NCBI RefSeq assembly: GCF_054482595.1
Contig: NZ_CM137008.1
Length of the DNA stretch: 64,000 nt
Reading direction: 5' to 3' (one strand)
Part shown: piece by piece, positions 18,589-19,680 of the stretch
How positions within the stretch are numbered: position 1 is the stretch's first letter
Layout: each line of letters starts with the position of its first letter
Notes under the pieces: generated by a model
What the model saw: the letters and a program-made list of their open reading frames with translations, nothing else
What the model was told of the DNA's origin: nothing
The model's database searches: none
Program-made: the position numbers and the translations under genes

Positions 18589-18876
18589 GGATTACGTACC
18601 TCCCGGTTTTGCCGGGAGTTACATGGCCTGAAATTTTGTATTTCATTGCTACATTCATTCAAACCACCTGTAACAAAAAGCTGCCTTTGACGATCTATTG
18701 CTATAAATAAGTGATCTTTTTTCTTTAATTGTTTATTTATTTTAAAATGGTTAAGTTTTGCTAATCATGATGAGCTATTTTTGATAGTTCATCCTGTGGC
18801 GTCGCTCTTAAACTTATATTGTAAATGACTTAGATTTAAATGAGATAATAATTTTGTTAACAATATGAGGCGGGAG

Positions 18877-19680
18877 ATGTTTTCTACAAACTTAATACAG
18901 AGTAATTATGGTGATTTAAATATTAAAAGCCTGGCTTTCGACTCTTTTAAAGAAAGGCTGCAGTCTACCATGGCGGCACTCACTTTCTTTATATCAACGG
19001 GTCAATGTGACTGCGATGAAATAGAAGAATCAAATTTTAATTATATGATTGCCTATATGTCTAACATTAACTATGATGCCTCAAAGCCAGGAGCGCCAGC
19101 ACTTAGTTTTGATACATATCTGCAGGACAATGTTAAATATAGAGTAATAATTAATAATCTTTATGGTAGTGAAATTCGGATAAGAGGTATAAATAAAGAT
19201 TTTATTGGAATGGATGTTACTTCTGTATTTCGCCCAGAAAAAATGACCAATTTGATCAGTATAAAAAACAGGTTGGTTATTCACTATTTAAGGACTATAT
19301 ACTATGAACAAAATTATATACATCCTGTCGGGAGCATTTTTGCTGCGATTCAAAAAAATGAGAGTCTCCTAAAGTTTCCTTCGATAATATCAATGCTTAA
19401 TATCAATCTTCTTTTTAATCCACTAAATCTTCCGGGAATGGGAAGTGGTATACTTGAAGATATTATGAGTATTCCAGATAGTTCACTTAGAAAACGTCTC
19501 GGGTATGAGGTTTTAAGCTTCTCGCTACAGGCACATTCATTGAGCCAGGAATGTATTGATAAGTTGGACATTTTTTTCGCTGACGATCTGTTTAAATATG
19601 AGTCAGTATGCATCGCCGCGATGGAACATTTAAAAAGTAAGGCAACGGCCCCTATACAAAACGGACCGTTGCCAGCATAA
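18877..19680 (+). CDS. ydjO: uncharacterised protein YdjO
   Basis: ORF 18865..19680; visibly AT-rich; start at MFSTNLIQ by recall of the K-12 protein. Confidence 0.8.
   Translation: MFSTNLIQSNYGDLNIKSLAFDSFKERLQSTMAALTFFISTGQCDCDEIEESNFNYMIAYMSNINYDASKPGAPALSFDTYLQDNVKYRVIINNLYGSEIRIRGINKDFIGMDVTSVFRPEKMTNLISIKNRLVIHYLRTIYYEQNYIHPVGSIFAAIQKNESLLKFPSIISMLNINLLFNPLNLPGMGSGILEDIMSIPDSSLRKRLGYEVLSFSLQAHSLSQECIDKLDIFFADDLFKYESVCIAAMEHLKSKATAPIQNGPLPA

Follow-up and report, generated by a model that had tools for sequence, protein, structure and literature searches.

Why is ydjO, which lies between two convergent core genes, cedA and tcyP, so much richer in A and T than its surroundings, and what does this composition say about how and when the gene arrived? 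A first-pass annotation had described ydjO and the cedA-ydjO spacer as conspicuously AT-rich compared with katE and tcyP, with codons dominated by A/T at the third position, and had read this as the mark of horizontally acquired DNA silenced by H-NS. The stretch of DNA analysed here (64 kb in length, hereafter the window) matches E. coli XH990 at 100% identity, and in that strain the genes cedA, ydjO and tcyP are annotated under those same names. The compositional description held when GC windows were computed: GC is 0.326 in the cedA-ydjO spacer and 0.348 in ydjO, compared with 0.517 in katE, 0.523 in cedA and 0.529 in tcyP. Across positions 18589-19680 it is 0.342 against 0.493 for the window (z = -3.5 among all 1,092-bp windows), and the 1,092-bp stretch with the least GC in the 64 kb starts at 18601. 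Runs of A/T only, at least 10 bases long, occur at 6.4 per kb in 18589-19680 and at 1.25 per kb in the window, and A or T homopolymers of at least 5 at 9.2 and 4.0 per kb, respectively. Both the GC3 of ydjO (0.32; mean 0.524, sd 0.060) and its codon-adaptation score (0.576; mean 0.711, sd 0.048, with the window's own genes as reference) are the lowest among 48 long ORFs.

Alignment with genomes that lack the gene delimits a haplotype-specific AT-rich islet at 18571..19681 (1,111 bp, GC 0.345; no strand assigned), which takes the place of about 55 bp of the terminator spacer that ancestrally lay between cedA and tcyP. The corresponding locus of E. coli ST131 ZH063 is identical to the window as far as 18570, and once more from about 19682 on, and in such empty sites nothing but a bidirectional terminator of 46-90 bp lies between cedA and tcyP. 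In a comparison of 54 cedA loci from 54 species, the empty architecture was found in all non-Escherichia genera examined (Citrobacter, Salmonella, Enterobacter and Kluyvera among them) and in four non-coli Escherichia lineages, while a cedA-tcyP spacer of intermediate length was absent from the outgroups examined, so that the two states are discrete. The islet is carried by 4,300 of the 5,426 complete E. coli genomes, and 1,124 (20.7%) have the empty site, ST131 O25:H4 and LF82 included. Strain HH97 was considered as a further empty site and rejected, its locus being a unique replacement by an odd C-rich sequence. With an empty site in every outgroup and in a fifth of E. coli, and with 1.1 kb of AT-rich DNA where about 55 bp would be expected, the earlier claim of horizontal acquisition is upheld, and as judged from these alignments it rests on genome comparison, beyond composition. 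The word 'horizontal' is nonetheless drawn from insertion and composition together, since no donor or mobile-element relative was found, and the ORF list and a repeat search gave no terminal repeats, target duplication, tRNA, integrase or transposase at the islet edges. A tblastn search gave no match in phages and, in plasmids, three mislabelled chromosomes only.

The islet is also old. An intact, collinear ortholog of 257 aa (34% identity) lies between cedA and tcyP in E. albertii, and because it occupies the same site, genome comparison shows that the insertion took place in an ancestor within Escherichia, no later than the split between E. coli and E. albertii. The E. albertii islet DNA itself found no match in E. 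coli genomes, from which it is too diverged. Between the two species, dS of ydjO is 1.5 compared with 0.61-0.70 in the flanks, and roughly the same twofold ratio is seen within E. coli. GC3 is 0.31-0.33 in all ydjO alleles and in E. albertii even though synonymous sites are saturated, and two divergent alleles differ by 53 changes of the GC-to-AT type and 57 of the AT-to-GC type. Given the age of the insertion and the equal GC3 of lineages with saturated synonymous sites, we infer that the AT-richness is a maintained equilibrium rather than the decaying foreign signature of a recent transfer. Low GC can thus stay the same over the entire time that two Escherichia species have been separate, and composition alone therefore says little about when a piece of DNA arrived. 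The distribution is patchy: E. albertii and the majority of E. coli carry the islet, yet empty sites of the ancestral type are seen in the intermediate lineages of Escherichia and in E. coli that resemble ST131. One gain followed by simple losses does not explain this pattern; presence and absence must either have persisted side by side as a long-lived polymorphism or have been exchanged through homologous recombination.

The edges of the islet lie inside the 3' ends of the two core genes. Junctions were read directly in the window and in loci L003, L010-L016, L026 and L064, and the islet haplotype was found to supply the stop codon of cedA and the five codons before it (18571..18588, plus strand), such that CedA ends in QEGEVTE with the islet and in QENEVEE in empty-site genomes. 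The cedA end GGGGAAGT(G/C)(A/G)CTGA(G/A)TAA is common to E. coli, Escherichia sp. MOD1-EC7003 and E. albertii. Immediately 3' of the stop is a plus-strand hairpin (18588..18629, core stem 18600-18618; RNA fold -20.7 kcal/mol, z = -3.0), which is unlike the ancestral bidirectional terminator (-12.8/-15.8 kcal/mol in ST131 ZH063) and is probably a replacement cedA terminator with a weak U tract. At the other end, an intrinsic-terminator hairpin of the convergent tcyP (19641..19673, minus strand; -22.4 kcal/mol, z = -3.7) sits within the final 13 codons of ydjO, with UUACUUUUUAAAU after it on that strand; a terminator scan placed a terminator-like site at 19652-19639, and E. albertii has an equivalent tcyP hairpin (-20.1 kcal/mol, z = -3.7). 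An Rfam scan returned a sub-threshold snoRNA chance match only. CysB activates tcyP when sulfur or cysteine is limiting, and any tcyP transcript that passed the hairpin at 19641-19673 would be antisense to ydjO. In a serum transcriptome ydjN and ydjO decrease together (PMC4145685), which is compatible with read-through or co-regulation. The repeat search also found a direct repeat on the plus strand, with a left copy TGACGATCT(A/G)TT at 18688..18699 and a right copy TGACGATCTGTT at 19581..19592. Escherichia sp. MOD1-EC7003 carries an 893-bp deletion exactly between these copies, which leaves the last 32 codons of ydjO only.

A sigma-70 promoter of ydjO (ATGACT-16-AATAAT) was located by consensus scan at 18825..18852 on the plus strand, and identical hexamers have been reported from genomic SELEX as a constitutive RpoD promoter of the gene (PMC3946193). 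The same SELEX work puts an HNS mark in the cedA-ydjO spacer (PMC3946193), and a 320-bp ydjO/cedA 'promoter island' is H-NS-bound in the ChIP sets of Kahramanoglou and Oshima and is not listed for that of Grainger (PMC3661553 Table 1). The gene of this island is predicted to be foreign by two methods, those of Nakamura and Lawrence (PMC3661553). Within the islet neither signal is enriched at the level of simple motifs: the high-affinity H-NS motif TCGATAAATT has three loose matches in 1.1 kb, compared with a window average of 1.6 per kb, and a simple scan found 4 sigma-70 consensus sites against 4.8 expected from shuffles. The spacer does contain a 21-nt element, GATGAGCTATTTTTGATAGTT (18769..18789, plus strand), some 70-90 nt before the inferred transcription start, which is identical in E. 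albertii (positions 4327-4347 of the locus) within a spacer whose remainder is unalignable. The longest word shared in 500 shuffles was 13 nt, and the element occurs once in the window; it is a candidate regulator-binding site.

The coding sequence runs from 18877 to 19680 on the plus strand (RefSeq annotation) and encodes a protein of 267 aa, 30.2 kDa and pI 5.4. The start codon is ATG 18877 and not the ATG at 18865: RefSeq annotates the former, and a purine-rich Shine-Dalgarno sequence and ATG 18877 are kept in all alleles and in E. albertii, whereas one divergent allele no longer has the ATG further upstream; in the window, direct reading gives GAGG at 18867..18870, 6 nt before this ATG. 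YdjO has neither signal peptide nor membrane segment and is a cytosolic, 30-kDa protein. Within E. coli its dN/dS is 0.13-0.27 (Fisher p = 2e-11 and 9e-7), and within E. albertii pN/pS is 0.24. From these ratios and the maintenance of the ORF across species, ydjO is judged to be a real protein-coding gene under purifying but weak selection. It nevertheless changes fast: dN between E. coli and E. albertii is 0.67 compared with 0.01-0.04 in the neighbours, which amounts to non-synonymous evolution 20-60 times faster. The protein combines a variable N-terminal two-thirds with a conserved C-terminal third. The gene is also dispensable: in many strains it is missing, deleted, frameshifted or interrupted by IS1.

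Matches to YdjO were confined to E. coli and E. albertii in searches of 5.8 billion proteins and 1.84 billion cluster representatives, and by this measure it is an Escherichia-restricted orphan. The remark that its product has no recognisable catalytic motif was borne out by homology searches and structure prediction. There were no Pfam or NCBIfam matches at E <= 1, PADLOC returned 0 families at E <= 1 for the E. coli and E. albertii proteins alike, and PHROGs gave noise only (best 0.0046 over 40 residues of the E. albertii protein). A sequence-profile search of the PDB had as its best hit a designed repeat protein (E 0.022, meaningless), and a fold search found no matches. One apparent remote homolog (27% identity, E 4e-37) was rejected as an artefact of sequencing or assembly, since its contig reproduces the E. 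coli locus with A and G swapped for each other (557 A>G changes, 425 G>A changes and 36 other differences). YahL and YjfZ, two proteins of similar length, were likewise rejected as paralogs, as BLASTP gave E 0.22 and 2.2 over short patches only; a further value of 0.007 in this comparison also came from a short patch.

Taken together, we think it probable that ydjO and its spacer are a small, old, horizontally acquired AT-rich islet bound by H-NS. The comparison shows that the 1.1-kb segment (18571-19681) replaced the bidirectional terminator between cedA and tcyP. As read from the sequence, it carries a complete transcription unit made up of the sigma-70 promoter at 18825-18852, the Shine-Dalgarno sequence and the ORF at 18877-19680. 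It also provides both neighbours with new 3' ends, namely the hairpin and final five codons of cedA and the tcyP terminator placed in ydjO. H-NS presumably polymerises over the AT-rich spacer and the 5' coding region and leaves the promoter mostly inactive, a step for which the published ChIP and SELEX data lend support. YdjO would then be made only when H-NS is relieved, possibly through a factor acting on the 21-nt element at 18769-18789. The low GC would by now reflect mutational equilibrium under weak selection on codon usage, and no longer be a remnant of donor composition. The role of YdjO is most likely that of a niche-specific accessory rather than a housekeeping function.

An unlikely alternative, though the likeliest of those considered, is that the islet is decaying junk, the functionless remnant of an old insertion, in which the ORF survives by chance or inertia and the AT-richness arises from the AT-biased mutation of E. 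coli on unconstrained DNA. The islet's absence from 20.7% of genomes is in keeping with this idea, as are its equilibrium composition and the empty family, fold and motif searches. So too are repeated independent disruptions: ydjO is frameshifted in the E. coli O157 genome examined (AR-0428; pseudogene) and in ECL27977, has a premature stop in BL21, and is interrupted by IS1 in E. coli ET915 and YPE3 and in E. albertii TW07627, besides the deletion in MOD1-EC7003. Against loss of function altogether, however, dN/dS of 0.13-0.27 is significantly below 1, and the ORF has remained intact and collinear (257-267 aa) despite changes at two-thirds of its residues between E. coli and E. albertii, with the Shine-Dalgarno sequence, the ATG and the 21-nt upstream element all conserved.

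Less probable again is that ydjO is a conflict gene, a single-gene defence, anti-defence or competition factor whose presence/absence and divergent N-terminal alleles are held under balancing selection. This idea draws on allelic structure. A hypervariable segment on the plus strand, comprising the promoter and codons 1 to about 178 (18750..19410), has deeply divergent alleles in E. coli, and one of these has 72-81% identity there with flanks at 96-100%. Its dS is 0.8-0.9 in the hypervariable part compared with 0.03-0.12 in the nearly identical C-terminal third and 0.05-0.11 in tcyP. A description of YdjO as two domains is tentative because the structure model is of moderate quality, with a pLDDT of only 63. 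A clean polymorphism of two states, each of them old, runs through Escherichia, and this would suit such a factor, as would the very fast protein evolution and the position of a genus-restricted orphan in AT-rich, H-NS-bound DNA. But dN/dS remains below 1 even in the variable part (0.18-0.22), PADLOC and PHROGs hold no matches, no partner gene or nuclease, NTPase or toxin motif is present, and introgression from a sister lineage of Escherichia accounts for the divergent allele just as well. The more specific proposal that YdjO is the sole component of an unrecognised Escherichia-specific, H-NS-silenced conflict system (for phage defence, anti-defence or competition between strains), with a variable N-terminal recognition part and a conserved C-terminal domain, in which balancing selection, and not drift and introgression, maintains an ancient polymorphism of presence/absence and of alleles, is a slightly longer shot still. 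Birth of the gene de novo from the local intergenic region, with no arrival from outside, fits the lack of a donor among the proteins, phages and plasmids searched and an ORF whose 3' end enters a terminator hairpin, a common feature of young ORF extensions, but is very improbable given an ancestral spacer of just 46-90 bp, without detectable trace in the islet beyond chance (best local alignment score 21; shuffle mean 18.9, maximum 28), and outgroups that show discrete states with no spacer of intermediate length.

The gene had been flagged before. The cedA-ydjO spacer is one of the 78 H-NS-bound promoter islands described in E. coli K-12 (1811053_320; Panyukov and Ozoline 2013, PMC3661553), to which the present comparison adds direct proof of insertion, and the island is not flagged by IslandViewer or GIST (PMC3661553 Table 1, columns A and B blank). 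The horizontally acquired islet favoured here shares with classical genomic islands an atypical composition and presence or absence among strains, but is unlike them in being only 1.1 kb long, in having its edges inside the 3' ends of two core genes, and in its lack of a tRNA, integrase, terminal repeats or target duplication. As for the xenogeneically silenced AT-rich islets of E. coli K-12, it differs in being a single gene without mobility genes and old (shared with E. albertii) rather than recent. The locus is a clean small example rather than a discovery, one that allows a direct reading of where the insertion took place, of the state before it, of its age and of the products of its decay, and YdjO is an E. 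coli K-12 protein without family, fold or phenotype that is yet demonstrably under selection.

YahL, YdjO and YjfZ have been described as 'conserved signature proteins' of E. coli and Shigella (PMC11057252). Our searches confirm that YdjO has no homolog outside Escherichia. It is not universal, however, since 1,124 of the 5,426 complete E. coli genomes are without ydjO, nor is it exclusive, given the 34%-identity ortholog in E. albertii and the remnant in Escherichia sp. MOD1-EC7003. The gene has been proposed as a universal and exclusive E. coli qPCR marker for water testing (PMC11057252), but the genomes without it include the ST131 and LF82-type extraintestinal and adherent-invasive lineages, and E. 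albertii has a diverged copy. The ydjO assay had a lower detection rate (93%) and a weaker correlation with culture counts (PMC11057252), and strains without ydjO may explain both.

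The window is E. coli chromosome in which the AT-rich stretch at 18589-19680 (100% identical to strain XH990 and 98.9% to K-12) corresponds exactly to the cedA-ydjO spacer plus ydjO, within the local order chbF-chbG, katE (- strand), cedA (+; 18325-18588), ydjO (+), tcyP/ydjN (-; 19684-21075), ydjM and hxpB. The ydjO start is the ATG at 18877, as in the RefSeq annotation, and not the upstream ATG at 18865, which is absent from one divergent allele; GAGG-N6-ATG at 18877 is kept, E. albertii included. The GC content of the stretch is 0.342 against 0.493 for the window (z = -3.5), making it the lowest-GC 1,092-bp stretch within the 64 kb, and the density of A/T-only runs of at least 10 bases is 5x that of the window. 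By feature, GC is 0.517 in katE and 0.523 in cedA, 0.326 in the cedA-ydjO spacer and 0.348 in ydjO, and 0.529 in tcyP. Of 48 long ORFs, ydjO ranks last both for GC3 (0.32, against a mean of 0.524 and an sd of 0.060) and for codon-adaptation score (0.576, against a mean of 0.711). The first-pass annotation had described ydjO and its spacer as AT-rich relative to their neighbours and horizontally acquired; sliding GC and codon-adaptation calculations bear out the former.

The acquired-DNA reading is supported by comparison with cedA loci from 54 species representatives, in which the positions of cedA, tcyP, katE and any YdjO were mapped. Every non-Escherichia genus examined (Citrobacter, Salmonella, Enterobacter, Kluyvera, Leclercia, Atlantibacter and others) has an empty architecture consisting, in order, of a CedA end reading QEN-E.., an A-run, a GC hairpin, a T-run and the tcyP stop, and the same is found in E. 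whittamii and three more Escherichia lineages (L013-L015). The ancestral hairpin can form on either strand (-12.8 and -15.8 kcal/mol) and is accompanied by U-runs, which makes it a bidirectional terminator. The window leaves this ancestral form at 18571 and returns to it at ~19682, so that an islet of 1,111 bp stands in place of ~55 bp. No trace of the ancestral spacer was found inside the islet, and neither the ORF list nor a repeat search revealed terminal repeats, a target duplication, an integrase or a tRNA. The islet supplies new 3' ends to both neighbours: the last five codons of cedA (18571-18588, +; QEGEVTE versus QENEVEE at the empty site of ST131 strain ZH063, L003 2171-2189), a post-cedA hairpin (18588-18629; -20.7 kcal/mol) and a tcyP terminator hairpin (19641-19673, -; -22.4 kcal/mol, z = -3.7, then a U-rich tract), which sits within the final 13 codons of ydjO. 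The two CedA C-terminal forms track the presence or absence of ydjO, and the last two residues of TcyP are HH in the window and HR in the two genomes read for comparison, L003 (empty site) and L010 (remnant).

Islet DNA was found in 4,300 of 5,426 complete E. coli genomes, also at blastn sensitivity, and a contiguous empty junction (cedA, 46 bp, tcyP) in 1,124; the two classes account for all 5,424 E. coli genomes having the locus. Empty strains include the ST131 strains ZH063 and O25:H4 CU568-3, and also LF82, all of which we take to be phylogroup B2. Ranking the lineages by their tcyP third-position distance to the window shows a patchy distribution of the islet: both states in E. coli (0.03-0.06), a remnant in Escherichia sp. 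MOD1-EC7003 (0.12), empty in E. whittamii and L013-L015 (0.25-0.27), occupied in E. albertii (0.33) and empty in Citrobacter and Salmonella (0.44-0.47). Simple deletion of the islet is ruled out as the origin of the empty sites because these retain the ancestral spacer. The patchiness reflects either long coexistence of both states or movement of the islet between lineages, with cedA and tcyP serving as the arms for homologous recombination.

The islet is old rather than recent. E. albertii has an islet-type cedA end, an AT-rich spacer and, at the position of ydjO, an ORF with 39% identity by tblastn, the match stopping at the contig end; draft assemblies of this species break at an IS1 site in the ortholog. 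In strain TW07627 (L064 4880-5647) a 768-bp IS1 with a 9-bp target duplication, GGAACACCG, splits the gene; once the element is taken out, the ORF is intact and collinear, with 257 aa and 34% identity to YdjO (BLASTP 1e-34). The same protein, intact at 257 aa, is annotated between cedA and tcyP in other E. albertii (P0067; 125 member sequences). In the interspecies comparison, dN is 0.67 and dS ~1.5 for ydjO, versus dN 0.01-0.036 and dS 0.61-0.70 for cedA, tcyP and ydjM; within E. coli, dS is 0.11-0.18 for ydjO versus 0.04-0.08 for tcyP, again about twofold. This near-constant ratio fits an islet that has diverged in step with its flanks from about the time of the E. coli/E. albertii split. 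Genes free of codon-usage constraint show excess dS, and the excess in ydjO is probably of this kind. E. albertii (L064 2992-4001, L073 1566-2575) lacks katE here, with chbG, a 50-aa ORF and cedA directly in turn, unlike E. coli, Citrobacter and others, in which katE is present between chbG and cedA.

We conclude that ydjO is a real protein-coding gene, yet dispensable. All pairs of intact E. coli alleles give dN/dS 0.13-0.27 (flanking genes 0.01-0.06) with a significant excess of synonymous change (p = 2e-11 and 9e-7), and the E. albertii ortholog gives pN/pS 0.24, from 12 differences. Gaps in the interspecies alignment of six sequences, in which 77 columns are invariant, fall between whole codons, showing that the reading frame is kept. 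The gene has nonetheless been lost repeatedly, by a -1 frameshift at nt 695 (O157 genome AR-0428), a +1 frameshift (ECL27977), a premature stop at codon 261 (BL21) and IS1 insertions, which arose independently in E. albertii TW07627 and at least two E. coli genomes (ET915, H63; YPE3, H113). In Escherichia sp. MOD1-EC7003 an 893-bp deletion between direct repeats TGACGATCT(A/G)TT, whose two copies lie at 18688-18699 and 19581-19592, leaves the final 32 codons. In E. coli HH97 (NZ_CP116409.1; L001 4047-4152) ydjO is replaced by ~106 bp of C-rich low-complexity sequence (…CCCTCCCCACCCCCCCACCCGTCCCCCCCGCCCGG…), unique among the 5,426 genomes, which may have arisen through faulty assembly or a one-off repair event.

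Across six E. coli alleles GC3 stays at 0.31-0.32, and E. albertii has 0.326, despite near-saturated synonymous sites between the species, and the two most divergent E. coli alleles differ by a balanced 57 GC-raising and 53 GC-lowering changes; the composition is therefore not ameliorating toward that of the genome. The AT-richness is an equilibrium and a poor clock for the time of acquisition, best read as mutation bias under weak selection and possibly reinforced by H-NS binding. Diversity per site among five common alleles is 0.041 for ydjO versus 0.008-0.019 for cedA, tcyP and katE. A rarer allele (P0006, 29 member sequences; L007) is embedded in otherwise normal E. coli DNA, its flanks being 96-100% identical; from ~18750 to 19410, covering the promoter and codons 1 to ~178, identity to the window is 72-81%, with dS 0.8-0.9 and dN/dS 0.18-0.22, and the C-terminal third is near-identical. 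The simplest reading is a mosaic arising from recombination with some diverged lineage of Escherichia; balancing selection could also lie behind the divergence.

YdjO (30.2 kDa, pI 5.4, no tryptophan) has no membrane segment and no signal-peptide-like N-terminus in its sequence. Pfam, NCBIfam and PADLOC gave no match and PHROGs noise alone, in agreement with the earlier statement that the product has no recognisable catalytic motif. No homolog outside E. coli and E. albertii turned up among 5.8 billion proteins (word-indexed search) or 1.84 billion cluster representatives (exhaustive phmmer), and phage and genuine plasmid records yielded nothing. YahL and YjfZ were rejected as unrelated, as was an apparent remote homolog (P0034; 27% identity, E 4e-37) from an A/G-interchanged artefact contig. 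In that contig (Logan SRR33321306, L009), A and G have changed places throughout the E. coli cedA-ydjO-tcyP locus: of 1,018 differences, 557 are A>G and 425 are G>A. The best AlphaFold model of this orphan (pLDDT 63, pTM 0.63) predicts a long helix, a 4-5-stranded sheet and a helix (11-140), then a poorly defined linker and a putative C-terminal helical bundle (190-254).

Upstream of ydjO, a consensus scan found ATGACT-16-AATAAT at 18825-18852, the same hexamers as in the constitutive RpoD promoter reported for ydjO from genomic SELEX, which also places an H-NS mark in the spacer (PMC3946193). The spacer is among 78 K-12 'promoter islands'; H-NS occupies it in the data sets of Kahramanoglou and of Oshima, and both Nakamura and Lawrence predicted the gene linked to it to be foreign (PMC3661553). 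The 21-nt word GATGAGCTATTTTTGATAGTT (18769-18789), occurring once in the window, is identical in E. albertii and stands out from otherwise unalignable spacers (longest shuffle word 13 nt); it is a candidate binding site for some factor. Expression of ydjN (tcyP) and ydjO went down together with the CysB regulon in a serum transcriptome of ExPEC (PMC4145685). Antisense read-through rather than co-regulation could be the cause, given the convergent orientation of tcyP and the position of its terminator within ydjO. The remaining mentions of ydjO in the literature are incidental: two LTEE clones carry SNPs in it, and one lactate-evolved line a synonymous mutation.

All that the first-pass annotation proposed for ydjO is already in the literature and supported here, and neither the locus nor the type of feature is new; the insertion boundaries, ancestral state, age, selection regime and population frequency are added. 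The point of interest is the role of a selected, genus-restricted, fast-evolving protein. The 1,124 empty E. coli genomes and the E. albertii ortholog correct a published marker claim (PMC11057252): not all E. coli carry ydjO, and the gene also occurs outside E. coli/Shigella. In that water-quality qPCR study, ydjO had the lowest detection (93%) and weakest culture-count correlation (r = 0.65) of three markers, which would fit its absence from ~21% of E. coli genomes.

Elsewhere in the window, the second most atypical gene is a 632-aa ORF (27017-28915, -; GC3 0.371, codon score 0.592) just upstream of an ORF at 29438-31366, presumably thrS. This is what we take to be the position of arpB, and low-GC stretches occur at 26531-28531. 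A short AT-rich stretch (25650-25949, GC 0.337) lies in the spacer of divergent ORFs at 24710-25642 (-) and 25926-26684 (+).
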